DNA of 64,000 nt from the IMG/VR virus record IMGVR_UViG_3300045999_010033, positions 1 through 64,000 of that record. One strand, given 5' to 3'. The notes under the pieces were generated by a model, which was not told the DNA's origin, did not search any database, and worked only from the letters and a program-made list of their open reading frames with translations. The stretch comes from a virus. Of this stretch, positions 8,849 to 58,873 are shown one piece after another. The translations under genes and the position numbers were made by a program. Each line of letters begins with the position of its first letter. Position 1 is the first letter of the stretch.

Positions 8849-9099
8849 TATATTCGGTATTTTGATAGTATATCACTCCAATATTGTCGGCCTTCGGGTG
8901 TGCTATTCCAAACGAATCCACGCTTCATAAAGACTTCAAAACTTCGACATTTACTTTGCAAAAAGAAAGAAATGGATCCGACATTATCAAGATTTTTTAA
9001 ATACTTAACCTGTACCGCATATGGTAATTTATTCAGATAATATAATCCGTTTTTCATTTTATATTCATTTTGCAGTCGGAGCGGGACTCGAACCCGCAA
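8848..9099 (-). CDS. TPEGHxYW-family small protein (paralog 7)
   Basis: Paralogy; N-terminus may overlap the tRNA-like element. Confidence 0.45.
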   Translation of the reverse strand: MRVRVPLRLQNEYKMKNGLYYLNKLPYAVQVKYLKNLDNVGSISFFLQSKCRSFEVFMKRGFVWNSTPEGRQYWSDILSKYRI

Positions 9100-9160
9100 C
9101 GCTAAACCGTATAGGATGAGATGACCGTTTCCTCATTATAAGCTATCCGACCGACCAGCC
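9072..9160 (-). tRNA. tRNA-like gene (T-arm GCGGG-TTCGAGT-CCCGC and acceptor GGTCGGA/TCCGACT clear; anticodon arm not resolved)
   Basis: Canonical T-loop and 7-bp acceptor pairing on minus strand; about 80 nt; anticodon undetermined. Confidence 0.45.
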
Positions 9161-12069: not shown

Positions 12070-12264
12070 TTATATTACGATTATTGTATCTTCAGCTTCA
12101 CTTTGTCCAAGCAGATAACCTGCTTTGAATCCTTTAACGAATGCCTCATAGGATATGATGCCATCATCTATTCGTTTGAATATCTCAAGCGCTTTCAGCT
12201 CTATGATATCATCACGCTTTGTGTTTCGTATGTACGTTTGTTTTTTTGATTTATCTTCACTCAT
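12070..12264 (-). CDS. hypothetical protein
   Basis: ORF track. Confidence 0.4.
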   Translation of the reverse strand: MSEDKSKKQTYIRNTKRDDIIELKALEIFKRIDDGIISYEAFVKGFKAGYLLGQSEAEDTIIVI

Positions 12265-12283: not shown

Positions 12284-12376
12284 TAGTCAGGACAGGATTC
12301 GAACCTGTACAAAGTTATTTACTATTACCTTTGCCAGCTCGGATGCTGGTGTGTCTACCTATTTCACCACCTGACC
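12284..12376 (-). tRNA. class-II tRNA-like element (acceptor GGTCAGG/CCTGACT, D-arm, long V-arm, T-arm ACAGG-TTCGAAT-CCTGT; anticodon loop non-canonical 6 or 8 nt)
   Basis: Manual fold; one of three related copies (also 51344 and 52019). Confidence 0.5.
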
Positions 12377-12387
12377 GAACCATCCGA

Positions 12388-12765
12388 TTAGTTATCGGAG
12401 AAATCAATTCCACCGAGGATGCTATCCCCGTCGTTCATACGTGCAATCTTCTCTTTGGCATTCACACGCATTTGTTTCATAACTTCACGAAGTGACCCGC
12501 CATCTGTCATTTCATTAACACGTTCCCACGCGGCATCAATCTTCATTTGAAGAAACTCGCGAAGCGGTTTGTTTTGTGGTTCATCGTTGAGCTCCTCAAT
12601 GAAGTCCTCAAGTGATGCAACCGTTGCCATCCGAAGAGCGAGCGATTCCGTGCTATCCGGCGAATCGGCTGTAATAACGTTAGCGAGTACCATCGCCAGC
12701 TTTACACGTTGCTCATCCATTTCATTAATCAATCCCAGAATTCCACCAATGTTTTCGATATTCAT
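12388..12765 (-). CDS. hypothetical protein
   Basis: ORF track. Confidence 0.5.
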   Translation of the reverse strand: MNIENIGGILGLINEMDEQRVKLAMVLANVITADSPDSTESLALRMATVASLEDFIEELNDEPQNKPLREFLQMKIDAAWERVNEMTDGGSLREVMKQMRVNAKEKIARMNDGDSILGGIDFSDN

Positions 12766-12767
12766 AA

Positions 12768-13094
12768 TTAACCGTTTAATTTAGGTTTAAGTGTATTTAT
12801 TAATTCAGTTTCGATTCGGTGTGCTTCGGCTTTACCACGTACCACCTGAAGTACGTTCACTTCATATACTACATTCTCCTCGCCATCCCAACGTCTCATA
12901 TCACGATACAACGGCCAGTCCTTTTCCCATTCGATGCGGGCCCGGCTCACATGCTTATGGAAACGATTGATGGCTGACCATTTGAATGCCCTACCTTTAG
13001 CGACTGTAATACCAATGTATTGTTTGTTATTAATCGTATTGGTGATAAGGTATATCACGTGGTTTCTATCACTTCGTTTCTTCCTCATGCTCAT
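12768..13094 (-). CDS. GIY-YIG nuclease family protein
   Basis: 'VIYLITN...KQYIGIT' GIY-YIG signature near N-terminus; 108 aa. Confidence 0.6.
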   Translation of the reverse strand: MSMRKKRSDRNHVIYLITNTINNKQYIGITVAKGRAFKWSAINRFHKHVSRARIEWEKDWPLYRDMRRWDGEENVVYEVNVLQVVRGKAEAHRIETELINTLKPKLNG

Positions 13095-27104: not shown

Positions 27105-28598
27105 TCACTTCAATTTAGAACGAATCTCATCGAAGGTAATCCGATTGTGGAATGTACCATCTTTGTAGATAGTATTCAACGCACCATGTCGTTCTTCTTC
27201 CCAAGATACTTTATCCTTCAGTTCATAGTTTTTATGATGAAGTTTACCCAATGAATCGGATTCCATTACTTCAACTACCTGCAACAAACCAGTAGCAGAT
27301 TTCTTTGTACCATCATCGGTGATAGGGTCTTTGAAGATTTCTCTACCTTCTTCGTTCACTTCAACATAAGTAGCCTTCATAGCGAAACCGAATGTATCGC
27401 GTGTGTTGTACTGATATGTGAATGAACCCACACCGAACACAATGTTAGTCGAAGCGAATCCCTTACTAGCGAGCCTTTGGCAAATTTCCTCAGCCCTCTC
27501 AAGCGTAATAGAGTCACCATAGATTGCTCCAATGTGAGGGTCTAATACTTTGTAACCCTGCTCATTGATTGTACCGCCAAACACATCCCAAAGCAATTCA
27601 ATCACACCTTTATATGAAGGATGTGTTGCTTGTTCCGCCGAGTACATATCAGGCTTTGTGTTTAAACCACACACAATATCGGTAGGATTACCACTATCAG
27701 GTCTGATTACCAATTTACCATCACGTGCCATAATCTTATCTTTCAGTACAACAACGTGCTCCGTACATACTTTCCACAAGTCCCAAGTATCGGATACAAC
27801 CGAAAGGATACCGGTGGGATATGTGTCCAACAATCTACTGAACGTTCCGATTTCATCATCTTTACTACCTGCACACATTACACTATGTTCGGTTGCATTT
27901 ACACTACCAACAACCATACCTTTTGCTCCATAGAATTTGCGAGCACCGTGAATTACTGGAAGACTATCCGACCCCAAGAACGATGTGGCATGTCCAAGAC
28001 CAGAACTGATTGTTACATCAATACTATCAAGACCACGCATTGAGAAGTCATGTGCCTGCCAATCAACAAACCACGCACGTTCCTTGTCCGTTTTATCCTG
28101 CCACTTCGTCAATACTTTACGATATTGATGTGCTATGGTAGCGGATGTCATAGGCTTCCAAAGCAAGTTAGAAATAATAGTTTCCAAATAGTTCGTAATC
28201 CAATAGAAATCGGGGTGAGTATTACGAATGGTCAGAACCGGCACCTTAATAGGAACGGTAGTACCTTCGGTGATTGCTTTCACTTCAATCGGAAGATAAC
28301 CCAAATCGTGCAACCTTTCAAAGTGCGAAACATCATAGTCAGTACCAAGGTAAAGACTCAGTTCCTCTTTGATTTCAGCGATAACTACATCCTTTGGCTG
28401 ACTGAAAAATTCCTTTTCAAAAGCCTCGTGGATTTCCATCATAACCATTTGCTGTCCAAACGATACGACTTCATCACATCCTTTAGGAGCGTGTTTGTTA
28501 CTACGCGGTGTGAAGTTTGAATATACCATAGTCGTACCTTTGGGATATTGTTGATGGTGTCCTGTCTTGTAACCGTCAGTAAGAAGAAGCGGATTCAT
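27105..28598 (-). CDS. nicotinamide phosphoribosyltransferase family protein (NAMPT/NadV-like; candidate Namat of NARP1)
   Basis: 497 aa; N-terminal 'LLTDGYKTGHHQQYP' matches the NAMPT 'DSYK.THYKQYP' signature. Confidence 0.8.
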   Translation of the reverse strand: MNPLLLTDGYKTGHHQQYPKGTTMVYSNFTPRSNKHAPKGCDEVVSFGQQMVMMEIHEAFEKEFFSQPKDVVIAEIKEELSLYLGTDYDVSHFERLHDLGYLPIEVKAITEGTTVPIKVPVLTIRNTHPDFYWITNYLETIISNLLWKPMTSATIAHQYRKVLTKWQDKTDKERAWFVDWQAHDFSMRGLDSIDVTISSGLGHATSFLGSDSLPVIHGARKFYGAKGMVVGSVNATEHSVMCAGSKDDEIGTFSRLLDTYPTGILSVVSDTWDLWKVCTEHVVVLKDKIMARDGKLVIRPDSGNPTDIVCGLNTKPDMYSAEQATHPSYKGVIELLWDVFGGTINEQGYKVLDPHIGAIYGDSITLERAEEICQRLASKGFASTNIVFGVGSFTYQYNTRDTFGFAMKATYVEVNEEGREIFKDPITDDGTKKSATGLLQVVEVMESDSLGKLHHKNYELKDKVSWEEERHGALNTIYKDGTFHNRITFDEIRSKLK

Positions 28599-28621
28599 AA
28601 TATATGTGTTTATTGTTTGAA

Positions 28622-29524
28622 TTAAATTAAGAAATTGGTAAATACATTGAACTGGTGTGTTATGATTTCATCAGCTTCAATATCTTTGTAAGAGTTTGTT
28701 GTTATAATTTTATTAAAATGTGGAGTAAGTACGTCCAAACCGGCGGAGAAGATACCGTGAGTAACTACCAAATAGATTTGAGCCGTAGGTAATTGTTCAC
28801 GTATTGCTTTAGCCAATTCAATAAAGGTACGTCCTCCATCACAAATATCATCAATGATAACATACTTTAATGGTACATCTGTCTTACTAATCGGTAGATT
28901 CGGTACTTCCGTTTTTATGATTTGCCCCGTCTTTATATCACGGATTTTATTCGCCGTAGCAATTGATTGAACTCCCAATGCTTTAGCTACATCAAATGTT
29001 TTTTTGTATGCGCCGGAATCGGGGCTTATCAAACATAATTCGTCTGGATTAAAGGTTGAGCCTGATATTTTGGATACAGCGAAGTTGATAAATTGATAGT
29101 ATGTATTGGTTGCTTTTTTAAGTCCATTCACACACGCTTCAATTACATCCGAATGTGGATCTAATACCTTAACCCTATCAAAGTCCAAAGAGTTGATAAC
29201 TGGAGAAATAACATCTTTTACATAATTGATTCCACCCTCAACAAATTTTCTATCGGAACGAGCTCCTATAAAGTAAGGAACTGATAAATCAATCTTCATT
29301 GTTTTGTTCAATCCTCTAATTGCTTTCACTCCACAAATAATCAATTCCAAATCGGAAAAGTTATTTAGACGAGATACTATCGTTACATTAGATGTACCAT
29401 GTCGGATTTTATCATGTTCGGAATTGGGAATTTCTAAACTTTGCTGCCCATCGGGGAATTTTGATACCTTATATAAAAGGTTTTCTATTCTATTTGCTGT
29501 GGGATTTGTAAGGTCTAATTTCAT
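28622..29524 (-). CDS. ribose-phosphate pyrophosphokinase family protein (Prs-like; candidate ADP-ribose pyrophosphokinase Adps)
   Basis: 300 aa; 'VIIDDICDGGRTF' PRPP-binding motif; immediately upstream of the NAMPT-like gene. Confidence 0.6.
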   Translation of the reverse strand: MKLDLTNPTANRIENLLYKVSKFPDGQQSLEIPNSEHDKIRHGTSNVTIVSRLNNFSDLELIICGVKAIRGLNKTMKIDLSVPYFIGARSDRKFVEGGINYVKDVISPVINSLDFDRVKVLDPHSDVIEACVNGLKKATNTYYQFINFAVSKISGSTFNPDELCLISPDSGAYKKTFDVAKALGVQSIATANKIRDIKTGQIIKTEVPNLPISKTDVPLKYVIIDDICDGGRTFIELAKAIREQLPTAQIYLVVTHGIFSAGLDVLTPHFNKIITTNSYKDIEADEIITHQFNVFTNFLI

Positions 29525-29918: not shown

Positions 29919-31145
29919 TTATTTTTCGTGTTTCAATAAAAAAGTATTTGATATTACTTTGAATGAGATAGTTCTATCTAAACTACGAATCACTACACCC
30001 TCCCTATCAAAGTTTGGATTAAGTACCGATTTAGCATCAGCGTAACTCAACAATTCACTCACATCATTCGGTAAGATAAAGTTTGTATCTAAAACCGGCA
30101 CAGTCTCCAACCCAAAGGTATGTTCCATCGTAGCCATAAACATCGGAAGGCCATAATAGGTTTGGTTATCAATATCAAAGATGTTAAAGAACCTTACGGT
30201 CTGACCTTTTATCTTATATGGATTACCCTGAATACCCTCACCGATTAACTCACCCTGAATGGAAAGGTTCTTACCATAACTCCTAAGTTTGTTTTCCAAG
30301 TCAAGCTCTCTAGCCACCTTCCAAAATGTGTTTTCCGTTTTAGGTCGTTCAATGCCATCATCACACATAACCATACCGGGTACGAATGGTTCAGGTTCAC
30401 TCAATTCCAAATTACGGCTACACACTCCAAACACACCATCTTTGTAATAGAACGTTGCTGAACTACCATCAAGCTTTTCCGTTACATAGAACTGATGCTT
30501 TGATTGTAATCTCCAGCCTTCATATTCTTTTGTTAAGTTTTGTACACGCTCTTCATCGGTCTTTCTAATGAATGATGGGAACAACCCTTTCACTTTGCCG
30601 GATAGTTCGGCCGGTATTGGTGGCTCATATTTAGTGATACCCAACCTTTCAGTTACATCTTCACCGTCTACTATGGTGATAAGTCCTTTATATAATGTAC
30701 TATCTAACATAGTAAGTGGTAACAACAAACCTTGTGAAACCTGTCCACGCAATCGAATCGTTTTCAATCTGAATCCCTCACTACCATCTTTCATTTTCTT
30801 ATATGAAGATTTACGAAGAAACTCAAACTCATCACAAATCGGTAAGAACGAATCAACTTCACAATAAACACAAAGGTCACCCGGCTTATACTCGCCCTTT
30901 TTAGTTACTACCTTCCATCCGCCAACAACGGCAACTTCGATAGCATCCGCACCATCAATCGGTTGGATATCGGTAATCGTTCTTATACTTGCTAACTTCC
31001 TATCGGTCATAATTACGGAATTTTGTTCGTTTACAAATCTATCATTTTCGGTGAATCCGGCTGAATCGTATTCCGGCACATCATCTTCACTCATTGCTTG
31101 TAAGGCCATATCTTGCCATTCTTTCATTTCATCTTTCATATCCAT
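29919..31145 (-). CDS. ATP-dependent RNA ligase family protein (KxDG nucleotidyltransferase)
   Basis: Motif I 'TEKLDGSSATFY'; 408 aa. Confidence 0.55.
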   Translation of the reverse strand: MDMKDEMKEWQDMALQAMSEDDVPEYDSAGFTENDRFVNEQNSVIMTDRKLASIRTITDIQPIDGADAIEVAVVGGWKVVTKKGEYKPGDLCVYCEVDSFLPICDEFEFLRKSSYKKMKDGSEGFRLKTIRLRGQVSQGLLLPLTMLDSTLYKGLITIVDGEDVTERLGITKYEPPIPAELSGKVKGLFPSFIRKTDEERVQNLTKEYEGWRLQSKHQFYVTEKLDGSSATFYYKDGVFGVCSRNLELSEPEPFVPGMVMCDDGIERPKTENTFWKVARELDLENKLRSYGKNLSIQGELIGEGIQGNPYKIKGQTVRFFNIFDIDNQTYYGLPMFMATMEHTFGLETVPVLDTNFILPNDVSELLSYADAKSVLNPNFDREGVVIRSLDRTISFKVISNTFLLKHEK

Positions 31146-34371: not shown

Positions 34372-35667
34372 TTACCAAGTAATAACCGTATCATCGGCCT
34401 GCTCTTCGGTAAAGAGAGCCTCTTCTTTTTGTTCAGCCTCTTCCGTCTTGATGTACTTCTGAATGAGCTGTTTCATAAACACACGCTCACTATCGAGTCC
34501 ACCATCGTTACTGAAGTATGGAAGGATTGCGATTTCAGCCGCCTCCATAAGAGAGAAGCCATCGTAAATCAAACCAGCTGCCTCCACATTCACACGCGAA
34601 GAAACGATAGTCGATACTTTACTCATATCGGTCTTAATCATTTCACGAGTGGTGCTAGCGATTTCAGCGAGAGCGTTCAGAGAATACTCATCGGCTTCAG
34701 GGAATTTGAACTTCAAAAGAGCAAGTTCGTTTTCCTTATCCAACAGGTCCATCTCAATCGTAACGAAACGGTCCATAATGGCACGGTCCATAATACGAGT
34801 CGAGGTGTATTCGTTACCGATGTTAGCGGTAGCGATGAAGGTAACACCATTAGCAACTTTGATAACCGGTGAACCTTCTGCCTCATCAAGACGAAGATAA
34901 CGCTGACCGGAATCAAGAACCGTCATAAGGATGTTCCACGCTTCGGGGTGAGCACGGCTAATCTCGTCAAGCAGGATGATTGCGTTCGGAGTGCTGATAG
35001 CCTTCACAAAGGCGGATTCGCTGAAGAACGTTCCATTCTCTTTGTTGAAGTGCGTATTACCTACAAGTGTTGCGCGTGGGTCCTGCGTAGCACCAAGGTT
35101 GAAATAAAAATCGGGACGTTTCAGAGAACGAACCAATGATTGAGCTGCAAGTGTCTTACCACAACCGGTAGGTCCGACCATCATAATGTTCTTACCACGA
35201 ACGGCAGAACGAATAAGATACTTCCATTTCAATTCGGTAATGAAAAGACCGGCGGGTTTAAGTTCCTTACCGGCTTCATGGATGAACTGCTTCAACTGCT
35301 CATGCGTTTCAAACGCCTCACTCACGGAGTTAACTTCGTTTTCCTGAATAGAAACTGCGGCACGTTTGAACTCATCCATATCAACAAGTTTGTAAGCAAT
35401 CTTGCCACTCGCTGTAACGTACCCACGAAGTGCCTTGCCTTCATCATGTGCTTGCTTCATTTTGGCTTTGGAAATACCGGGCACTTTAGCGGCAGGTTTA
35501 CCATTGGTATTCATCAACGCAAACGATTCTCCGAACTCAACGACCTGATAGAAATCATTCGTGTACTCAATCGATTTTTTAGCAGTTACACGCTTAGTGG
35601 TTGAACGCTTAACACTCTTTGCTGCAGTTTTACGAGATGCAGTGCTACGATTTTTTCTGATTGCCAT
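34372..35667 (-). CDS. CobS-like AAA+ ATPase (MoxR family) with basic N-terminal tail
   Basis: Walker A 'GPTGCGKT', Walker B 'ILLDEISRA'; adjacent to vWA protein. Confidence 0.6.
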   Translation of the reverse strand: MAIRKNRSTASRKTAAKSVKRSTTKRVTAKKSIEYTNDFYQVVEFGESFALMNTNGKPAAKVPGISKAKMKQAHDEGKALRGYVTASGKIAYKLVDMDEFKRAAVSIQENEVNSVSEAFETHEQLKQFIHEAGKELKPAGLFITELKWKYLIRSAVRGKNIMMVGPTGCGKTLAAQSLVRSLKRPDFYFNLGATQDPRATLVGNTHFNKENGTFFSESAFVKAISTPNAIILLDEISRAHPEAWNILMTVLDSGQRYLRLDEAEGSPVIKVANGVTFIATANIGNEYTSTRIMDRAIMDRFVTIEMDLLDKENELALLKFKFPEADEYSLNALAEIASTTREMIKTDMSKVSTIVSSRVNVEAAGLIYDGFSLMEAAEIAILPYFSNDGGLDSERVFMKQLIQKYIKTEEAEQKEEALFTEEQADDTVITW

Positions 35668-35709
35668 AAAATAACTGTTTATTGGTTGGTGATTATAATT
35701 TTATTTATA

Positions 35710-37863
35710 TTATTTTTTAAGAAACATTTCATTCATTGTCTTTGCTACTTCAAACATATTTTCAACGTTCACAAATTTAGCACCATCGCTGTAGGAACGT
35801 TTGAATATATCCCAATCTTCACTTGATTCAAATCGAGATGAGCGAATATCAGTGATGAAGTAGGATAGTACTTGAATACCCATTTCCCCCATACGCTTTA
35901 CTTGCTCGCGAGTGTGTACTGCCGCAGTATTACCTCCATAGTTCAGTTGGTTTTCACCATTGGAAATACTAAAGCAAGGTTGTCCATCGGAGAAATTCAG
36001 AAAATAACTATCCATATCATTCGATTGTGGAATAAGATACTTTTGAATCGCCTCAAAACAAAGTCCTTCCGGCGTAGTTCCATGTGGACGAAGAATTGAC
36101 ATGTACTTACAAAGCTTTTTCAAGCTATCGTAACGGCTATTGTATACCATACATACCCACGGCAATTCGGGGCTACCCGATGTAGTACGAATGGATATTT
36201 GTACATCAATGTTTCTAGCCATAATACATGCTTTGGCAATGGCGACAACTGCGGTGACGGTACGACGCATTTTTTCTCCCTGCATTGAGCCGGAGTAGTC
36301 AATTGATATGTGTAAGTTCACTTTTTTGTATTGGTCAATATGATGATTGAAAAATACACTCTCATTATCATACCCCAATGATGCAATCATACGTTTATCA
36401 ATCCTACCACTTTTAAGGCGACTGAATATAGTCTCACGGCTTTCGGCACGAACTTGTAGTTTCTTACCGAGTAATGTACCGAGTTGAATACCACGTTGAA
36501 CTTCTGCTTCATACTTTTTGTGAATCGCACCATCATACCCACGTGTTGAACATGGGAAATCTGAAGATTCAATCATATTATCGGTAAGACGTTTCACTAC
36601 GATACAATCTACACCTTTACCAACAATACGACCATCTTCGGTCAACTTCATACCAACTTTGGTCAGTTCGGTATCCGATTCTTCGATGTTCTCAAGACTT
36701 TTCAGTTCGGTCTTGCTTACATATTTTTTCTTAATTTTCCCATTCAGAAATTCTTTTTGTTTTTGAATCTTCTTTTTGAGTTGTTCAAGTGCTTTGGGGC
36801 TCAGACGAACTTGCTTACCTTTGGTATCACCATCGGATTCAACTACATCATATCCATCCAAATCATCAATAGTTTCACCATCACCACCTTCACCATCACC
36901 TTCACCATCTTCATCTTCTCCTTTTACTTTTTGACCATCTGCTGGTTTTGTATATTTCAACATTTCTGCAGTAACATCAATGGCCAAGCTCAAAGAATCG
37001 GCGGATGATTTGAGTCTACTGATGTTTTTAAGGTCAAGCAGTTGTGCAATCGTGCGAAGACCTTTCAGTTTACTCAAACTCGTTTTCTCATTGAGAAGGT
37101 TTACGATGCGGAACAAATACGAATCAATCGTTTCGTCGGTGAACTCATCGGAATCGATGCCTTTCGTAACAATTTTATCGTTGAAATAATGTTCATACAT
37201 AGATACATAGTAATCACGATACCCCGGCGCAGTTTTGTAAATCCAACTATCAATACGTCGGTCTTCAATCCAATTACTAAGATTCATAATGAATTGATAC
37301 AATTCCTCCGTCAGTTTAGCACGGGTACGAATCTTACCATTCGGATGGAACATCGCGTATTTTTGTTTGGAATACGCTCCACCGTCAAATCTAGGATTTG
37401 ATTGAAACTTGGTCACATTATCTGCCTCACCTTTGTGATCGAGTACCGAATACGCCATTTTGCTATCCGAAAATTCTCTCAACATTTTGAAATCAGAAAG
37501 AACGATATGTGAACCTTCGTGCAGTGCCAAACCCACCGATACATCGAAGTTATCATCAACATCGGCAGAAAGAATAACCTGCTGGCCATCGGTTTTGCTA
37601 TCCGATTTGGTAGCGAACGTTACTGGGATTTTCTTTCCGGTTACAATCTGAACAAAGTTTGCGATTGCTCTACGAACCGAAGCGAGTTTGTAAAGGTTAG
37701 CAGATTTTTTCATAATCTGAACTTCATCCTTTTTGTACCCCCAATCGGTGTACCGGTCATAATAGTCAAATGACCTTTCATAATCATCATACCAATAAGA
37801 TGAAGCATAAGATTTACTCCACTTATCGGTTGCCTTTTGTTTCAGGCGCGTGTAATATCCCAT
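35710..37863 (-). CDS. CobT-like von Willebrand factor A domain protein
   Basis: 717 aa; MIDAS motif 'DYSGSM' in C-terminal third; acidic linker. Confidence 0.6.
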   Translation of the reverse strand: MGYYTRLKQKATDKWSKSYASSYWYDDYERSFDYYDRYTDWGYKKDEVQIMKKSANLYKLASVRRAIANFVQIVTGKKIPVTFATKSDSKTDGQQVILSADVDDNFDVSVGLALHEGSHIVLSDFKMLREFSDSKMAYSVLDHKGEADNVTKFQSNPRFDGGAYSKQKYAMFHPNGKIRTRAKLTEELYQFIMNLSNWIEDRRIDSWIYKTAPGYRDYYVSMYEHYFNDKIVTKGIDSDEFTDETIDSYLFRIVNLLNEKTSLSKLKGLRTIAQLLDLKNISRLKSSADSLSLAIDVTAEMLKYTKPADGQKVKGEDEDGEGDGEGGDGETIDDLDGYDVVESDGDTKGKQVRLSPKALEQLKKKIQKQKEFLNGKIKKKYVSKTELKSLENIEESDTELTKVGMKLTEDGRIVGKGVDCIVVKRLTDNMIESSDFPCSTRGYDGAIHKKYEAEVQRGIQLGTLLGKKLQVRAESRETIFSRLKSGRIDKRMIASLGYDNESVFFNHHIDQYKKVNLHISIDYSGSMQGEKMRRTVTAVVAIAKACIMARNIDVQISIRTTSGSPELPWVCMVYNSRYDSLKKLCKYMSILRPHGTTPEGLCFEAIQKYLIPQSNDMDSYFLNFSDGQPCFSISNGENQLNYGGNTAAVHTREQVKRMGEMGIQVLSYFITDIRSSRFESSEDWDIFKRSYSDGAKFVNVENMFEVAKTMNEMFLKK

Positions 37864-43087: not shown

Positions 43088-43198
43088 GAATCCTGCTCTT
43101 TTATCTACAACTTAATGTAGTCGAACATCCAACACTATAACATACGTTTTATAGTTGCTACCATTGGAGGCAGGCAGAATTGAATCTATGTTCACTGC

Positions 43199-43357
43199 TG
43201 ACAGGGTTGGATTCGAACCAACAAACCGAGATTCAGTAACGAGCACATAGTGCTGCAGCATTGTGGTCAACCCATACTCATTACCTATTTCTATATCGGC
43301 GACTGCGAGACGAGCAGCTGTGTTTGCCAAGATATTACATCGTTTCACCACCTGTCA
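43199..43357 (-). ncRNA. 159-nt tRNA-like gene with large internal insertion (acceptor TGACAGG/CCTGTCA, T-arm GTTGG-TTCGAAT-CCAAC)
   Basis: 3' half canonical; only complementary 5' acceptor strand lies 159 nt upstream, exactly 7 nt after tRNA-Ser 3' end. Confidence 0.4.
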
Positions 43358-44360: not shown

Positions 44361-44471
44361 TGCCCCAGGCGGGGGTCGAACCCGCACTCGCTTTCAGCGA
44401 ACAAGATTAACGCCGCGACGTGTTGAAGCTTGCGTTAAGTCTTGCATGTCTACCTATTCCATCACCAGGGC
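44361..44471 (-). tRNA. tRNA-Leu(TAA)-like gene with 26-nt insertion in the anticodon loop
   Basis: Acceptor, D-arm, AC stem CAAGA/TCTTG, V-arm TCGC-TGAAA-GCGA and T-arm all fold; loop is 33 nt CTTAA[..]AA with internal 7-bp hairpin TTAACGC/GCGTTAA. Confidence 0.5.
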
Positions 44472-44526: not shown

Positions 44527-45594
44527 TTAATTATCCAAATCTTTCCGAAAAGGTTTTGCGTATTTAGGGCGAATACATTTCCATATAATAGAATCGTAAT
44601 CCCTCCCATCTAACATAGAAAATAATATTGATGCATGATTATAACGGATTGCTTTGATTGCAAACTCTTTTCTGCTCAAATTTTCACTACGAATGATTGA
44701 GAATATTTCCAAATAATCACGTTTAATATTTTCAAATCTAACTACCAAGTCTTTTACGGTATCCTTTACCCACGTATCAAATTCGTCCGGCACTCTTTCC
44801 AATAACTCATTCAAATCACCACCGGTCCGCAACAATTCCCAGATATCTACATTCGAAACATTGGTGATTATCTTATGAAGTCTTACATACTCTTCACCTT
44901 TGATTTTCATTCTCTTCCCACCTTTGAAACGTATTACATAACCTTCGGCATCATTTGAAATCATATCCTTCAACTTAGTGAAGTCAGTAACACCATTGTA
45001 CTTTCTAACAACTCTTACATCGGTAAAAAGTGCTACTGATTTAGTCAAAGTTTCAAATTCAATTTCGTCCAAAGTATCTCTATCATATGCACCCAACAAT
45101 ACCAAACCCTCAAATGGGTAGCGGCAGACTATCCGATTCTCATCATATATGATTTCAAAAAGGTAAGTCCAATTTTTTCTCAATCCAGTTGTAGGATAGT
45201 TTTTCAATATAGATAATCCCTTCAACATTTCAGTTGCCTTAACGGCTTGCTCTGAAACGAATGAACCTCTCGTTGCTACTATCCAATCTCCGTTATAGTA
45301 AAATGCAATTCCTAAAGAACCGTCCATCTTTTCAAAGACTTCAAATGATTCGTTTGGAATTTCACTATTGGATAATTCTTCCATATTGAAAAATTTTGGA
45401 AATGGTTTGGCTACCACAGTGCCTTCATTATCCAAAACCAATCCACGGCAATCCAATGTAACTGCATCCCACAATCGGTCGTATTGGCACGTTCTGCTGT
45501 AATTGTAGATTGATAAAGGTAACGTTGGATGGTCTTGCTTAACTATCAATCCTCGTCCGATATAATCGTTCAATATGTTTAATGGATATTTCAT
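44527..45594 (-). CDS. RNA ligase family protein (KxDG; Rnl2/DRB0094-like)
   Basis: 'FEKMDGSLGIAFY' motif I; 355 aa; upstream of Pnk-like kinase. Confidence 0.6.
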   Translation of the reverse strand: MKYPLNILNDYIGRGLIVKQDHPTLPLSIYNYSRTCQYDRLWDAVTLDCRGLVLDNEGTVVAKPFPKFFNMEELSNSEIPNESFEVFEKMDGSLGIAFYYNGDWIVATRGSFVSEQAVKATEMLKGLSILKNYPTTGLRKNWTYLFEIIYDENRIVCRYPFEGLVLLGAYDRDTLDEIEFETLTKSVALFTDVRVVRKYNGVTDFTKLKDMISNDAEGYVIRFKGGKRMKIKGEEYVRLHKIITNVSNVDIWELLRTGGDLNELLERVPDEFDTWVKDTVKDLVVRFENIKRDYLEIFSIIRSENLSRKEFAIKAIRYNHASILFSMLDGRDYDSIIWKCIRPKYAKPFRKDLDN

Positions 45595-45995
45595 AATTTT
45601 ACACTAAAACGTTTCCGCATTTTTTCCAAAGTCTCATCCGGTACACCATGTACGGATTTATTACCATGTCTATTTTCTACAATCAATGATACAACGGTGT
45701 ATCCATAGCTCTTTGCTAACTTCAAATATGGTTCAAGTTCCCTTTCGGTAGTTGCCGTATTGGATACTACAATCTCTTGTCCATACTGAGTCGTTTCACT
45801 CATTTGCATCAATTCCTCAACACGCTTTTGACAATCCAAATGGGCTTCATGCAATTTCGAAGCGTCAAAATTGTAGTTACCGTTTGAATCGTAAAAGTAT
45901 TGGTCTGCCTCAAACACATTATTTGAAAACATATATTTAGCAAATGAGCTTTTACCACTACCGGGTAAACCACGTAATATGATTAATGTTTTCAT
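45591..45995 (-). CDS. polynucleotide 5'-kinase (T4 Pnk kinase-domain-like)
   Basis: 'MKTLIILRGLPGSGKSSFA' closely resembles T4 Pnk N-terminus 'MKKIILTIGCPGSGKSTWA'; 134 aa. Confidence 0.65.
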   Translation of the reverse strand: MKTLIILRGLPGSGKSSFAKYMFSNNVFEADQYFYDSNGNYNFDASKLHEAHLDCQKRVEELMQMSETTQYGQEIVVSNTATTERELEPYLKLAKSYGYTVVSLIVENRHGNKSVHGVPDETLEKMRKRFSVKL

Positions 45996-47449: not shown

Positions 47450-48112
47450 TTATTTATATTTTTCTACTGATTCATGATGGTCGAAACTCATTAGGCTTTT
47501 GATTGGTTGCCTTCTCATACGGGTAGCAATTTCACTTACCGAAATCGGCCTCAAACCATTACCGTCCACACCAACATCCATCATTTTACCTGGTCCAATT
47601 CTACTAGCCATAGGTAAATGAACGTGTCCATGCAAATGAATTGCACCATTGGCCATTTGGTCCCAACTGGCAATAGGAAAGTGCATCAGTACAAACAATT
47701 CACTACTAACAAGCGGAGTACCCACATTCCGTTTTACAGTTAAATGTAAGTATTTGTTTACGGAACTGAAATGTGATTGACATCCTTCTTTGTTTCTCTC
47801 AATATGATGGTCGTGGTTTCCGGTGATGATGTGAATGTTCTTACATACGATACGATTACGGAAGGCTTCGATTTGCTCAAACCCACCAAAACTCCAATCG
47901 CCCAAATGAAAAAGAATATCATCTTGTCCGACTTCGGCGTTGATGTTATTCACCAATGTATCGTTCATTTCATCCAATGATTTGAAATCTCTACACGTCA
48001 CCGGGTCTTTCCATTGTGTTGTAGTGGAACAGATGTTGGCGTGATTGTAGTGTGTATCAGATGTGAACCACAATTGTTGACCTTTATTTAAACTTATTTT
48101 CATTTGTTTCAT
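47450..48112 (-). CDS. calcineurin-like metallophosphoesterase
   Basis: 'FTSDTHYNH', 'GDWSFGG', 'GNHDHH' motifs. Confidence 0.6.
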   Translation of the reverse strand: MKQMKISLNKGQQLWFTSDTHYNHANICSTTTQWKDPVTCRDFKSLDEMNDTLVNNINAEVGQDDILFHLGDWSFGGFEQIEAFRNRIVCKNIHIITGNHDHHIERNKEGCQSHFSSVNKYLHLTVKRNVGTPLVSSELFVLMHFPIASWDQMANGAIHLHGHVHLPMASRIGPGKMMDVGVDGNGLRPISVSEIATRMRRQPIKSLMSFDHHESVEKYK

Positions 48113-50653: not shown

Positions 50654-50727
50654 TGGCGGTTCGTAGGGGTTACGCTCCCCTGCCTTCGCAGTGACAGTGC
50701 GATATTCTACTATTATACTAACGAACC
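50654..50727 (-). tRNA. tRNA-Asp(GTC) with non-canonical T-loop (AGCGTAA) and encoded CCA
   Basis: Acceptor GGTTCGT/ACGAACC perfect, AC stem TCGCA/TGCGA loop CTGTCAC. Confidence 0.6.
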
Positions 50728-50817: not shown

Positions 50818-51027
50818 TTATATTATCTTACAATACTATATACAACCGTCAACATCCAACCATCTCCATTGCTGTTGGTATGTACTGATTCAATCTTTAT
50901 TGTGTTTGGTCCAAATTCTGCAACCCATGCATCAAATTGCCGATTCAATTCATCACCAGCAAAGGTGCCGCGTTTTCCACTTGTAAATACTTTAATCATA
51001 TACTTTTATTTTTATTTTCTGCGTCAG

Positions 51028-51152
51028 GGTGGGGAATCGAACCCCACACTCTCATACCAGGAGCTATGCCTAGAGTTACATCACGTATAGTGTTTTCACA
51101 CATCCCCTATATTATGCGACGGCCTTAACGTTTACCCATTACGTCACCTGAC
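51028..51152 (-). ncRNA. 125-nt tRNA-like gene with internal insertion
   Basis: 5' GTCAGGT-GA-CGT-AATGGGTAA-ACG (acceptor + D-arm) and 3' TGGGG-TTCGATT-CCCCA-CCCTGAC separated by about 50 extra nt. Confidence 0.4.
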
Positions 51153-51343
51153 TACCACTTCTATTTAATTTTGAATAGCCTATCGAAGAATCGTTTTAGA
51201 GTCGGTTTTAGTTTTCGATTTCTTTTTAGCTCTTCTTGATACGCTATTACTTCCAATACCTCATCAAACCTAATTGGAGTTCCTCTACGGACATCATCGG
51301 ATAACTTTTCTAATCTTTCGTTTTTCATTTTTTTATTGTTCAG

Positions 51344-51439
51344 TAGTCAGGACACGAATCGAATCTGTATTTAGGATTGTTTAATCGGGCTTCATACCGT
51401 ACCTACCTTTCGGTGCGTCTACCGTTCCGCCACCTGACT
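51344..51439 (-). pseudogene. degenerate copy of the AGTCAGG class-II tRNA-like element
   Basis: Acceptor AGTCAGG/CCTGACT and D-arm intact, T-stem and AC arm disrupted. Confidence 0.4.
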
Positions 51440-51446
51440 ATTTTAT

Positions 51447-51701
51447 TTATATCCACTTAATACGATTTTCTGTGTCCATCCATTGTTGGAATTGATTTTT
51501 GTTAACCAAACACGTTCTCTTTTCTTCACCAAACATATTATTCATTGTAATTGATGTATCAGGGACAGAAATCAAACACTCAACAATCAAATGATCCCCT
51601 ATCTCACCATGTTCATCATCATAATCTTTTTCTTTCCATCCTAAAATTTCCAAAACGTATTTATTATCTATTCTAATGAATTTTAAAAGACTTTTTTCCA
51701 T
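51447..51701 (-). CDS. hypothetical protein
   Basis: ORF track. Confidence 0.45.
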   Translation of the reverse strand: MEKSLLKFIRIDNKYVLEILGWKEKDYDDEHGEIGDHLIVECLISVPDTSITMNNMFGEEKRTCLVNKNQFQQWMDTENRIKWI

Positions 51702-51702
51702 G

Positions 51703-52011
51703 TTATTTAGTTTTTGCGATTTCTACATTCAAAGCATTATTGAGCAATGAATACAATTTTGATGTAAAATCTCTCGAAAAGATTGACATCCAATTCATCT
51801 CTGTTTCCAACTCCTCAATAGATTCACGAATACTATCTTGATATCCTTTATGGTTAGTCACAATCCACAATGCAAGATTATTAATTCTTACTTTAAGTGA
51901 CTCGGATAAACATCCGTTATTTTGCATCATACAAAAAACTTGGTCTGCCCATTCATTACCACCAGTATCAAACAACTTGTTTTTGTCAGTGTATTTTTTC
52001 ATAATAATCAA
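51703..52011 (-). CDS. hypothetical protein
   Basis: ORF track. Confidence 0.45.
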   Translation of the reverse strand: MIIMKKYTDKNKLFDTGGNEWADQVFCMMQNNGCLSESLKVRINNLALWIVTNHKGYQDSIRESIEELETEMNWMSIFSRDFTSKLYSLLNNALNVEIAKTK

Positions 52012-52018
52012 TTTTTAG

Positions 52019-52096
52019 TAGTCAGGACAGGATTCGAACCTGCATGGTCACTCCTTTGTGTACACCGCGAGCTGCGTTACCATTCGCCACCTGACT
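52019..52096 (-). tRNA. AGTCAGG class-II tRNA-like element (no canonical anticodon stem found)
   Basis: Acceptor AGTCAGG/CCTGACT, D-arm GCG-AATGGTAA-CGC, T-arm GCAGG-TTCGAAT-CCTGT. Confidence 0.45.
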
Positions 52097-53358: not shown

Positions 53359-53880
53359 TTATTTATTTAGTTTACTAATACACTCATCAACTTTGTCACG
53401 CAACCTACCACCATTTCCGTGGTCACCATTCACCTGAACGTGTCTCCATTGTGGAACACGCATCCATTTGAATTGGCCGGCGAGATTCAAATCATCAATG
53501 GCAATCCAATTTTTCACTCCGTTATCCTTTACCCATTTACGAATTTCTGCCGCACGTTCCCATTCGATTGGTGGACGGCTCATTTTCTTCCATAGGTCTT
53601 GATGTGTGGTGATATCAATCAACAAGTGACCAGGTATTCCAAAGTGTTCAAATACTCGTTTCATTTGGATAAAACTGAAATGCTTTCTCCAATCCGAGCT
53701 CAATACAAGTCGTGCATCAGTCTCACGAAGAACTTTGTGTAGAGCCTGGCAATCTTCCTCTACCCATCTGTATGGGATTTTGAACAATTGTGAACCGGCG
53801 TGCAGTTCAACACGGCCCGTTCCCCATGTTCCCCATGCCAATGGGCCATCAACATCAATGAATATGATTTTATTGTTCAT
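53359..53880 (-). CDS. HAD-family phosphatase (T4 Pnk 3'-phosphatase-domain-like)
   Basis: 'IIFIDVDGPLA' DxDG(T/P) motif I at N-terminus. Confidence 0.55.
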   Translation of the reverse strand: MNNKIIFIDVDGPLAWGTWGTGRVELHAGSQLFKIPYRWVEEDCQALHKVLRETDARLVLSSDWRKHFSFIQMKRVFEHFGIPGHLLIDITTHQDLWKKMSRPPIEWERAAEIRKWVKDNGVKNWIAIDDLNLAGQFKWMRVPQWRHVQVNGDHGNGGRLRDKVDECISKLNK

Positions 53881-55628: not shown

Positions 55629-55700
55629 CGCTGATGGAGAATTACGATATCCCGACCTGAGTCTTAACAGGACCCTGCTCTACCTCTGAGCTACATCAGC
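55629..55700 (-). tRNA. tRNA-Asn(GTT)
   Basis: Acceptor GCTGATG/CATCAGC; AC loop CTGTTAA. Confidence 0.7.
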
Positions 55701-55989: not shown

Positions 55990-57060
55990 AAAGGTGAGAT
56001 TACCCTTTGTTGAGAACAGCCTTTAGAAAGATTATTAGTTCCTCTCTTATCCACCACCTTTTGAGCGGTATCCGTTCAGTGTCGGTTAGTAATGCTAACC
56101 ACTCATTAAGTTACTGACTACTCTCTTATTACTCCCCTTCTTCTACCCTGCCGAGCAGATTCACACTTGCGGTGTTAGAAGCTTTTCGTAAGAATCACAG
56201 ACCTCTTGCGGAGGTATCGTGGCTGGGAACAACTCCCAACTATGTAGACACCTTTCATCCGTAACTGATGGGCACTTATGCTTCATTTTGATTTTATAGT
56301 TTTGCTACCAAATGCAAGTATAAAGTTGGTTTGTAGATTGATTCAGGTAGTGGCCCATCTGCCAGCTCCCTCACCTTTTGAGTGAGGAAATACTAAACTA
56401 CCCGATGTGATATCCCTATCACCATATTTTAAGTCTGCTTCATAACTCATGCTTTGGTAAGCGAAGGTTAAGGGCAACAACGACACCACTCGTACTTTAC
56501 CATACCTTTCGGTTTTAAGTGAACTCTAATATTGGATAACGAAATGATACGAAGGGATTAAGTTCGTACTTCTCACATATACCCTATGGGTTATTCCTAT
56601 TATCCTTCCGGATTCAAATGAACTATCTACTTAGCCCATTCACCCAGACACCTCACCTACAGCCTTGCCGTCAGTTACTAAGTCCGAGTGGTATCCCACT
56701 TGCCTACTCAACCTCTTTTGGGAGGCGCATCGGTGCTTAACCAAACACCAACACTTTATCCTACTTTCGTAGTTTATTTAACGACCATAGGCGGCCGATT
56801 TGTACTATGTAACGCGAGGTTACTATGTACTCATTTCGTAATGTAAAAGAACTTTAATGTGAACCAAACTTACGCCCTATTAAGGATACTCCGTTTATAC
56901 TACTTTCACATCTGAATCGGTAGTGCGATTTTACTAAAGATAAGTAAAGTTTTTCAAATTACCAAATCTTTATTCGTTGAACATTTTCGGTTATGTTTAT
57001 TTACACCATATAATACTTCCTACTTCTGAACAAGTTTATAAAGTTAAGTAAAGTTTTTCA
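55990..57060. ncRNA. about 1.07-kb ORF-free region flanked by tRNAs; candidate large structured ncRNA
   Basis: No ORF of 60 aa or more in any frame of ORF track; internal short repeats (CACCTTTTGAG, AAGTAAAGTTTTTCAA). Confidence 0.35.
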
Positions 57061-57079: not shown

Positions 57080-57151
57080 TTGCGGGGGGTGGAATCGAAC
57101 CACCGTAGGCGAGGCTTATGAGACCTGCGGATAACCAACAATCTCCCCACA
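57080..57151 (-). tRNA. tRNA-Met(CAT) (or Ile-lysidine) copy 1
   Basis: AC loop CTCATAA with 4-bp stem; T-arm GGTGG-TTCGATT-CCACC. Confidence 0.55.
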
Positions 57152-57659: not shown

Positions 57660-57810
57660 AGTGGACGTGGTGGGAGTCGAACCCACGTCTTGATAAGAAA
57701 TCCTACCACCAACGTATCACAAGTTTATTCCTACATTCGGGTTGGACACCTATCTAACATTCTCACACCGTGTTAGCCGACGGTGATAGTGGTTCGATTC
57801 GGCCACTATG
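57660..57810 (-). pseudogene. tRNA-like remnants (T-arm GTGGG-TTCGACT-CCCAC at 3' side; class-II D-arm-like GCATAGTGGCCGAAT at 5' side)
   Basis: Fragments resemble the class-II tRNAs elsewhere but no consistent acceptor pairing. Confidence 0.3.
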
Positions 57811-58132
57811 CCACATAGAGAATCACATTCTATTTTAATCCCACGATGTGTGCGGGAGCGGTTACGCAGCTACTGCGTACTCAGCGTTGGCGTATGTGTT
57901 GCCAGTTATTCTTCGATACAATATTAAGGGATAGTATCATTTCCCTACTTGTGATGGTAACACTCACATACCAATCAATTACCAATACACGCCCATATTT
58001 ATAAGAACTATATATCTCCCATTTTTGGTCGATAACCAAAGTTACTACTTTTTTTTGGATTTACCAAACATTTCGGAAAATATTTTTTAAATCGTTGAAA
58101 ATCAACCGATTACGTATTAAAAAAAGAAATAT

Positions 58133-58873
58133 CTATCGGTTTTTCCTCAAAATTAGGGCCGTTTCCATCCACTTTTTTCCTATCGGATTGACCACCGGGG
58201 CATCAACAAATCGGCGAACGACTCGTTTTACATCTGAATCCGGATTAGAAGACTCTGAGTTTTCAACAATATACAATCGGTTTCCAAATATCGTGCGATA
58301 TTCACCCAATGCAGACTGGCATTTATTCCATAACCCTTCAACAAGCTCGTTTGATATGGAACGTTCCCGCTCACTATTACGTTTCAATGCAACTTCTAAT
58401 GTAGTATTAACGAACACCATTGCCGCATCATAACCGGCGGCTTCCATTTCAGATTTACGGCCGGCAATGTAAGCCGGATTGGCACCGGTACTATCCATTA
58501 TCATTCCCAGTCGCCCTTCCATATACATCTTACGTGTCGCAGATACCATACGAAATGCCTTTTGTCGTATACCGGAGCCAGTTTTATCTCGGCCGGTATC
58601 TATTACTGATGAATAAAACTCCGGGTCTTCATCTCGTATCTTACCCAACTCCTTTGGATTGATACCATTTTTTTGTAGAAACGCCTCAAAAGCATGATCC
58701 GAATTTATTACCTTCAATCCCATGCCGGTAAGGCTTGAACGCTTCGGCAATCCAAATATCTGGTCTATGATATACGATTTACCCGAACCGGGTCCACCTG
58801 CAGTAAACACACATTTGAGTACACCACGATTGAATACTCCTTCGTTTAATAAGGGTTTTAATAGGATAGCCAT
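58133..58873 (-). CDS. P-loop nucleoside/nucleotide kinase-like protein
   Basis: 'FTAGGPGSGKSY' Walker A; 246 aa. Confidence 0.5.
   Translation of the reverse strand: MAILLKPLLNEGVFNRGVLKCVFTAGGPGSGKSYIIDQIFGLPKRSSLTGMGLKVINSDHAFEAFLQKNGINPKELGKIRDEDPEFYSSVIDTGRDKTGSGIRQKAFRMVSATRKMYMEGRLGMIMDSTGANPAYIAGRKSEMEAAGYDAAMVFVNTTLEVALKRNSERERSISNELVEGLWNKCQSALGEYRTIFGNRLYIVENSESSNPDSDVKRVVRRFVDAPVVNPIGKKWMETALILRKNR

Follow-up and report, generated by a model that had tools for sequence, protein, structure and literature searches.

Plant mitochondrial genomes contain t-elements, non-canonical tRNA-like structures whose cleavage by RNase P and RNase Z sets the ends of mRNAs (PMC1920247). They combine a conserved T-arm and acceptor stem with a non-canonical cloverleaf, lie dispersed beside protein-coding genes and, once excised, are stable and receive non-templated C, CC or CCA (PMC1920247). 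Here we describe a family of tRNA-like elements represented in a 64,000-nucleotide stretch of viral DNA (IMG/VR virus record IMGVR_UViG_3300045999_010033, positions 1 to 64,000; the whole stretch is hereafter called the window), where three minus-strand loci starting at 12284, 51344 and 52019 share the two halves of a class II tRNA around unrelated middles. Like the t-elements, these phage elements are non-canonical, tRNA-like, wedged at the borders of open reading frames (ORFs) and bounded by flanks of the tRNA type, and by analogy they may be cleaved in a similar way. The t-elements, however, are organellar, heterogeneous and few per genome, whereas the phage family is viral, comprises hundreds of copies and joins a near-invariant tRNA-Leu scaffold to conserved copy-specific inserts. 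With a probability of roughly 0.55, we read each element as a non-decoding, tRNA-Leu-derived RNA that would be excised by the tRNA maturation pathway and would persist as a stable product carrying a copy-specific module.

Several other described RNAs resemble these elements in part. The tRNA-like domain of transfer-messenger RNA (tmRNA) joins an acceptor stem and T-arm lacking an anticodon arm to a non-tRNA module, and tmRNA is RNase P-processed and chargeable. It has a G3-U70 alanine identity pair, pseudoknots and a tag reading frame, whereas the phage elements have U-A at 3-70 and short, mutually unrelated inserts, and within the tmRNA clan of Rfam only the tRNA model matched at the element loci. 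YrlA and other bacterial Y RNA-like RNAs, which are associated with Ro60 and RNA-repair operons and some of which occur in phages, fuse a tRNA-like module of T-arm and D-arm to another module; they end in a Ro-binding stem and their acceptor-like stem is closed by a loop. Module fusion and an RNA-repair gene context are common to both, since the window carries RNA-repair genes, but the ends of the phage elements form the acceptor stem, and the elements match no non-tRNA Rfam model. Engineered tRNA scaffolds, mascRNA and the tRNA-miRNA units of gammaherpesviruses use a tRNA frame to obtain RNase P/Z processing and stability for an unrelated payload. The phage elements likewise combine a tRNA frame with unrelated payloads, although those systems are engineered or eukaryotic and the phage family is neither. 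Phage T4 produces the stable RNAs C and D (species 1 and 2), non-tRNA molecules that are encoded in its tRNA cluster and co-processed with tRNAs, but these number two per genome and are not a multi-copy family with an invariant frame. In the partition between conserved and free parts, the phage elements are like the minimalist tRNA-Leu substrates of leucyl-tRNA synthetase (LeuRS) as summarised in a later account (Larkin et al. 2002, in PMC9976931); relative to those constructs as summarised there, they are natural, possess an acceptor of fixed sequence with A1-U72, and contain inserts rather than deletions. In the literature searched, we came upon no phage family in nature that joins one fixed frame to hundreds of payloads. 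Full-text searches, in which the sequences themselves were included as queries, returned no prior description of the scaffold family, and there is no mention of such RNAs in the 224-motif survey or in the paper on the structures of GOLLD and ROOL. The family is large and apparently previously undescribed. We place it with tRNA mimics and processing elements of tRNA-like form, a known kind among which its architecture, a frozen frame joined to hypervariable modules, is unusual.

An earlier note on this DNA had grouped the three loci by shared 5' and 3' motifs, which are real and far exceed expectation. The common 3' motif (TTCGAWTCNTGTCCTGACT) has three exact occurrences in the window against 0.07 expected, and the 5' motif (RGTCAGGTGGYG) three exact sites and one with a single mismatch against 0.28 expected. 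We used a covariance model, R1, composed of 30 family members, all from phage contigs other than the window. The three loci rank top in the window (Table 1), followed by tRNA-Leu(CAA) and tRNA-Leu(TAG) at about 31 bits, with every canonical tRNA at 31.8 bits or less. These scores support the proposal that the loci are class II tRNA-like elements forming a family. The family is not confined to the three members first listed: the window holds a fourth, divergent copy, and 200 loci of uncultivated phages retrieved from public collections contain 311 or more copies of the scaffold, a lower bound obtained from matches to a 22-mer and a 5' 17-mer.

Copy 12284 has the acceptor stem GGUCAGG/CCUGACU with a G1-U72 pair, the D-stem GUG/CAC, A73 and C74. 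Its minimum-energy fold is a clean class II cloverleaf (z = -2.06) that contains the perfect CCAGC/GCUGG stem and 6-nt loop previously noted from the sequence, so that the analogue of the anticodon arm reads CCAGC-AUCCGA-GCUGG; this arm can also be paired as a 4-bp stem with an 8-nt loop. It is followed by a long analogue of the variable arm (CAAAG-14 nt-CUUUG) and the T-arm ACAGG-UUCGAAU-CCUGU. Copy 52019 is composed of the acceptor AGUCAGG/CCUGACU, the D-arm GCG-AAUGGUAA-CGC and the T-arm GCAGG-UUCGAAU-CCUGU, with A73, C74 and T at position -1. This copy had been described as having no stem, but its fold contains one bulged hairpin (6 bp, 8-nt loop) that replaces both anticodon and variable arms and lies off the canonical anticodon-arm position. 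In copy 51344 the acceptor and D-arm are intact and the middle of 47 nt forms no anticodon stem-loop. The T-stem itself is defective as well (ACAGA-UUCGAUU-CGUGU): two of its five pairs, including 53:61, are broken and the T-arm is missing from the minimum-energy fold. This is possibly a decaying copy. The fourth copy, at 51021, is probably but not certainly a member of the scaffold family. It has the 5' part AGUCAGG-UG-ACG..CGU, a middle of ~80 nt, the 3' strand CCUGACG with an A1.G72 mismatch, and C as the discriminator; in its T-arm, (G)UGGGG-UUCGAUU-CCCCA(C), both strands are changed relative to ACAGG/CCUGU.

A 7-bp acceptor stem, a D-arm with G18G19 and a 5-bp T-stem with a TTCRANY loop are thus present in copies 12284 and 52019, the T-stem being broken in 51344. 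What is missing in all three loci is a 5-bp anticodon stem with a 7-nt loop (U33, purine 37) that would present a triplet; on this point ARAGORN and the folds agree with the earlier note. ARAGORN reports copy 12284 alone of the three, as tRNA-??? with a 2-base anticodon, i.e., a 6-nt loop. The Rfam tRNA model RF00005 (gathering score 29) matches copy 12284 and, with relaxed filters only, copy 52019, whereas copy 51344 has no match in this search, relaxed filters included. The relaxed-mode check that had been proposed therefore returns a generic tRNA for two copies and nothing for the third. At the element loci of the window, the Rfam 15 models gave nothing beyond generic tRNA.

At least 120 IMG/VR stretches contain the exact 22-mer GGTTCGAATCCTGTCCTGACTA, as many as 6 copies lying within 5 kb; the matches to the 5' 17-mer, the second search anchor in IMG/VR, are likewise a lower bound. 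The consensus of the family is AGTCAGG-TG-GCGGAAT(T)GGTAGACGC at the 5' end and T-ACAGG-TTCGAAT-CCTGT-CCTGACT-A at the 3' end. Total element length is about 57–182 nt, and the part between the conserved halves differs wholly in sequence and length. The carriers are uncultivated phages, probably of freshwater Bacteroidota. Among bacterial and archaeal genomes the 22-mer occurs in only 18 contigs of metagenome-assembled genomes, 10 of which are binned as Bacteroidota, and in no isolate genome; we rejected a host tRNA as the source of the scaffold on these grounds. No cultured phage in INPHARED contains both scaffold halves, and there is no close relative of the window phage among 50,697 deposited phage genomes. 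Two variants of the scaffold were observed. In three loci (L063, L022, L116) an extra hairpin lies inside the D-loop, between GCGGAA and GGTAGACGC. In three others (L066, L077, L108), called as tRNA-Leu(UAA) by ARAGORN, the same scaffold has a CUUAAGU loop of near-canonical form and a variable arm that is short and capped by GAAA; these may be the ancestral functional form.

Scaffold positions 5–26, which take in the D-arm, agree at 22/22 positions with the tRNA-Leu genes annotated in each of 5,426 E. coli genomes, and derivation of the elements from a class II tRNA-Leu appears to be the best explanation of their sequence. The tertiary-contact and identity positions A14 (117/139 copies), A15 (119/139), G18G19, T48 (116/139) and A73 (about 90%) are kept in 83–95% of copies, T48 directly abutting the hypervariable part. 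The pair cells of the scaffold are 98.3% paired, and double-sided changes were observed at 14 of the 15 scaffold pairs (69 cells, compared with 7.8 +/- 2.4 in shuffled and 11–18 in slid controls), in an alignment whose lowest-scoring matches may include canonical tRNAs. Minority T-stems in a sample anchored on the 5' half are compensatory (GTAGG/CCTAC, ACAAG/CTTGT, GCCCG/CGGGT). Because pairs are kept through double-sided and compensatory changes, the RNA fold is under selection. The primary sequence is also constrained: the entropy of the T-stem 5-mer is 1.42 bits, compared with 5.99 bits in canonical tRNAs of the same loci, and that of the T-loop 1.79 versus 3.08 bits, whereas the commonest acceptor stem of any canonical isotype is found in at most 3/40 genes.

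E. coli LeuRS needs A73, A15-U48, G18G19, A20a and the tertiary pairs between D- and T-loops, whereas the anticodon and variable arms are dispensable, and a tRNA-Leu of E. coli that lacks both arms is still charged (PMC9976931). This identity set is complete in copies 12284, 52019 and 51344, and judged from its sequence the conserved part coincides with the minimal E. coli LeuRS substrate. Because of this match, leucylation of the family, or binding by other proteins that read the tRNA body, is plausible.

The anticodon region shows no such conservation. ARAGORN leaves 126/156 copies uncalled and assigns scattered anticodons to the remainder, and in its intron mode the identities spread over nearly all amino acids, for which reason intron-containing tRNAs were rejected. 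The first hairpin after the D-arm has stems of 3–8 bp and loops of 3–21 nt; among about 44 simple hairpins, only 2 have 7-nt loops, neither of them anticodon-like. We found no preferred loop size, U33-like position or shared loop motif across the family. With a copy-specific structured module in place of the anticodon/variable region, the RNA would be unable to pair with codons. The frameshift and suppressor roles suggested in the earlier note are not supported, in view of the arbitrary hairpin sizes and scattered calls, and without a conserved anticodon loop the elements are unlikely to be the anticodon-nuclease decoys that it also suggested. Its other readings, a processing signal and a tRNA mimic, fit best, given the tRNA-type flanks and the ORF-border context described below.

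The inserts themselves are under selection. In 128/170 elements the insert has no detectable relative, and no 5- to 7-mer shared among 129 non-redundant inserts exceeds shuffle maxima; a common insert motif was rejected accordingly, since no k-mer rises over shuffle expectation in this set. The inserts are nevertheless more structured than dinucleotide shuffles (mean fold z = -0.73, p = 2e-9) and mostly fold as one or two hairpins. Where inserts of the same type are found in two phages, their mean identity is 86% whereas the flanks (300 nt on each side) are at random-level identity, and the insert stems carry compensatory substitutions. An antisense or guide role against the phage's own transcripts was considered and rejected, as the longest complementarity between insert and window is 9–11 nt, no better than shuffles.

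The element ends have the flanks of tRNA genes. T at position -1, where bacterial RNase P prefers U, is found in 114/139 elements and C74 in 136/139, both positions lying outside the pattern used for the search, and just 4/139 encode CCA. In the canonical tRNAs of the same phages, C74 is present in 23/23 genes of the window and 207/209 of loci L001-L120, T(-1) in 72%, and an encoded CCA is rare. Their 3' trailer is uniform and unusual, with C74 but no encoded CA, CAA being the commonest trailer. C74 is present in the three window copies, T(-1) in 51344 and 52019, and none of the three encodes CCA. RNase P and the CCA-adding enzyme gauge the stack of acceptor and T-arm together with the elbow, not the anticodon arm (PMC4919913).

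The elements run in the same direction as neighbouring genes and lie close to their borders: an upstream stop codon within 30 nt is found for 41% of elements and 19% of canonical tRNAs, and a following ATG within 30 nt for 34% and 15%, respectively. In 12 copies a TAG stop overlaps bases -1 to +2. The placement of each window copy immediately downstream of a protein-coding gene, as first reported, holds for 12284 and 51344 (11 and 7 nt past the stop codon) but not for 52019, which lies 144 nt past tRNA-Glu. The next start codon is 15 nt after copy 51344. In the run at 50823-52011, gaps from stop to element are 7 nt and from element to start 7–21 nt, and the run continues into tRNA-Thr and tRNA-Arg; read from 52096 to 50823, the order is copy 52019, two ORFs, copy 51344, an ORF, the fourth copy, an ORF and tRNA-Thr. 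No promoter- or terminator-like site was detected on the same strand inside 50823-52096, which is weak evidence, as the scan used the sigma-70 consensus. In one locus (L009) elements lie within a tRNA array, some of them directly abutting tRNAs without an intervening ORF. The flanking ORFs have no relatives in IMG/VR, and a search for orthologous positions in related phages gave none. A dedicated partner gene was rejected, the 214 immediate neighbours, small and unrelated across loci, falling into 159 clusters, as was a dominant Pfam family among the 148 larger neighbours, where DUF932 reaches 7/148. A small ORF two genes upstream of copy 12284 has a weak match to the GIY-YIG nuclease family, just under the cut-off.

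Based on these observations, we propose that the elements belong to long polycistronic transcripts of the minus strand, both where they lie in tRNA islands and where they stand between small genes of early or accessory type. The RNA would fold to an L-shape in which the top half and elbow (acceptor stem, T-arm, D-arm, A15-U48) are intact, and host tRNA maturation would excise it through RNase P cleavage at +1, 3' trimming to C74 or position 73, and CCA completion. Excision would separate the mRNAs of the flanking small genes, as plant mitochondrial t-elements do, and would release a stable tRNA-like RNA unable to pair with codons, which may be leucylated or may engage proteins that read the tRNA body.

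Several points weigh against this proposal. Transcription, cleavage, stability, charging and any downstream role are steps that we infer. Copy 12284 has C, not T, at position -1, and copy 51344, with its damaged T-stem, may not be processed. The selection on inserts comes from other copies, those of the window being without counterparts: a 16-mer of the 12284 insert matches unrelated coding DNA only, and an 18-mer of the 52019 insert has no match elsewhere. Punctuation of mRNAs alone accounts neither for the conservation of each insert type nor for the ORF-free, back-to-back copies of L009. The frozen sequence of the scaffold is not accounted for by shape-reading enzymes alone, RNase P, RNase Z and LeuRS being indifferent to stem sequence, and the LeuRS rules applied here are those of E. 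coli, not of Bacteroidota. A further, tentative possibility is that a standardised, frozen tRNA-Leu chassis expresses and stabilises many small RNA modules, several per genome, in freshwater Bacteroidota phages. The resulting RNAs may be CCA-tailed or leucylated, the modules could act as binders or decoys in phage–host conflict, and the frozen sequence would reflect a sequence-specific partner.

Other explanations would give the product a different purpose or no purpose as an RNA. CCA-tailed and perhaps leucylated RNAs might act as acceptor-end mimics or sponges that titrate LeuRS, EF-Tu or acceptor-end toxins, leaving decoding undisturbed in the absence of an anticodon. This overlaps with excision of a non-decoding RNA and differs in what the product is for; we regard it as unlikely, though worth serious attention. 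Some host defence toxins cleave the acceptor ends of tRNAs or modify them, and because tRNA-repair proteins are encoded in the window (Rnl1-type ligase, kinase, phosphoesterase, HAD_SAK_2), an attack directed at tRNAs is to be expected. The match of the conserved part to a minimal LeuRS substrate (PMC9976931), the several copies per genome and the frozen stem sequence, which would suit a sequence-specific binding partner, point the same way. A pure sponge, however, needs no diverse, individually conserved inserts, and neither the neighbour clusters nor the Pfam profile reveal a dedicated partner protein encoded nearby. Unusual decoders (frameshift, quadruplet or suppressor tRNAs) or intron-containing tRNAs spliced to a normal form deserve hardly any credence: in copy 12284 the arm does pair perfectly over 5 bp around a 6-nt loop, or over 4 bp around an 8-nt loop, and phage RNA ligases could in principle seal a cut tRNA, but loop features and anticodon calls, with and without intron mode, lack any common pattern and insert lengths vary continuously over about 100 nt. 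We consider it very improbable that the elements are decaying tRNA-Leu pseudogenes, duplicates that lost the anticodon arm and drift. The damaged T-stem of copy 51344, the absence of a recognisable 3' half in 19 of about 135 5'-anchored copies and the near-canonical tRNA-Leu(UAA) forms would fit such decay, but neutral decay would hit all arms, whereas the scaffold is more conserved than in functional tRNAs and only the middle differs. Compensatory changes, conserved flank signals, structured inserts and the sheer number of copies across loci also speak against drift.

We give a low probability to an element that acts at the level of DNA. On this reading, the two conserved halves would bound a small mobile unit, or would serve as linkers through which recombination moves small gene cassettes from phage to phage during co-infection, and the tRNA shape would be an ancestral leftover. 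Identical or near-identical elements do lie in unrelated flanks with similarity stopping at their borders, including 93-nt copies in L012 and L015 that are 100% identical, and copies are dispersed between small ORFs with a scaffold sequence frozen across very different phages. However, canonical tRNAs at least 90% identical between loci also have unrelated flanks in 22/33 pairs; because they behave alike, we take the sharp borders to mean that RNA genes persist longer than the surroundings in which they lie, and do not regard them as proof of mobility. The 8-bp inverted repeat TAGTCAGG..CCTGACTA, which could mark the ends of such a unit, is the acceptor stem itself. Direct repeats of at least 6 nt at the ends are in excess (11 versus 4.5 +/- 2.1 permuted), but weakly so, with a permutation maximum of 15. 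The compensatory changes in scaffold and inserts indicate selection on RNA structure, the copies in one genome have no common inserts, unlike those of a transposition burst, and no transposase, integrase or homing endonuclease is consistently nearby.

The window looks like part of a large phage and contains 24 ARAGORN tRNAs, one tmRNA and one GOLLD RNA, all encoded by the minus strand. The RNA-repair toolkit is interleaved with the tRNA island and comprises two RNA ligases, one of them of the T4 Rnl1 type, together with P-loop kinases, a metallophosphoesterase and an HAD_SAK_2 domain protein; it shows a phage organised around conflict over tRNAs. The full-length GOLLD RNA lies directly upstream of tRNA-Gly, and the phage tmRNA (tag GNTYANAEYAVAA) lies within the tRNA island. 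Two Rfam tRNAs are missed by ARAGORN, and two further tRNA-like elements are uncalled by it: the one at 9073 has an extended D-arm motif, TAATGAG.AAA.GGT.ATCTCATCC, common to a subfamily in L002, L035, L059 and L008, and the loop of the one at 57080 contains CAT. A separate family of 157–176-nt RNAs with tRNA-like ends and a large conserved insert is represented in the window and in L047, L034 and L085; its motifs are TGACAGG..CCTGTCAG, a T-arm and a GTGGTGAAA..ACCAC D-stem, and it has no match in Rfam. Directly downstream of the T4 Rnl1-type RNA ligase gene lies a tRNA-Leu-like gene (GCCCTGG..) with ~26 extra nt in the anticodon loop (CTTAA[...]TTAATCTTG), which ARAGORN calls in intron mode only. 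Elsewhere, a NAMPT-type phosphoribosyltransferase gene lies beside a PRPP-synthetase-like gene, a pair that looks like NAD+ salvage, and a MoxR-type AAA+ ATPase gene is followed by that of a 717-aa protein without a Pfam match.

Table 1. TRNA-like elements, neighbouring ORFs and other features of the window.
Feature	Coordinates	Strand	Details
Copy 12284	12284-12376	-	93 nt; R1 70.3 bits, E = 1e-15; Rfam tRNA 44 bits
Copy 52019	52019-52096	-	78 nt; Rfam tRNA 39.8 bits; R1 61.1 bits
Copy 51344	51344-51439	-	96 nt; R1 52.5 bits, E = 4e-11, two non-pairs marked
Fourth member, divergent	51021-51153	-	133 nt; R1 19.2 bits (for 51055-51153)
ORF upstream of copy 12284	12388-12765	-	125 aa; stop ends 11 nt before 5' end of copy 12284
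ORF downstream of copy 12284	12070-12264	-	64 aa; ATG 19 nt past A73 of copy 12284
Four small co-oriented ORFs	50823-52011	-	102, 84, 55 and 58 aa; interleaved with copies 52019, 51344 and 51021-51153
Small ORF, weak GIY-YIG match	12768-13094	-	22.4 bits
RNA with tRNA-like ends and large insert	43198-43357	-	
tRNA-Leu-like gene	44361-44471	-	Rfam tRNA 38.4 bits with relaxed filters
tRNA-like element uncalled by ARAGORN	9073-9152	-	
tRNA-like element uncalled by ARAGORN	57080-57151	-	
Rfam tRNA missed by ARAGORN	50657-50727	-	49.7 bits
Rfam tRNA missed by ARAGORN	55629-55700	-	48.8 bits
GOLLD RNA	55991-56405	-	296.6 bits
tmRNA	57661-57994	-	
RNA-repair toolkit	29919-31145, 44527-45995, 47450-48112, 53359-53880, 58133-58873	-	
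NAMPT-type and PRPP-synthetase-like genes	27105-29524	-	
MoxR-type ATPase and 717-aa protein genes	34372-37863	-	

If the elements are excised and stable, phage tRNA islands would house, beside the decoding tRNAs, a further abundant class of tRNA-shaped RNAs, which standard tRNA finders overlook or wrongly report as undetermined tRNAs. The family would then be a bacterial or viral counterpart of the organellar t-elements, with a natural tRNA frame as the carrier of RNA modules; the chassis possibility, if true, would make it a natural version of the engineered tRNA scaffold. An invariant scaffold amid freely covarying canonical tRNAs points to a specific interaction, and the elements are substrates for asking which readers of the tRNA body (RNase P, RNase Z, the CCA-adding enzyme, LeuRS, EF-Tu or toxins) phages exploit.

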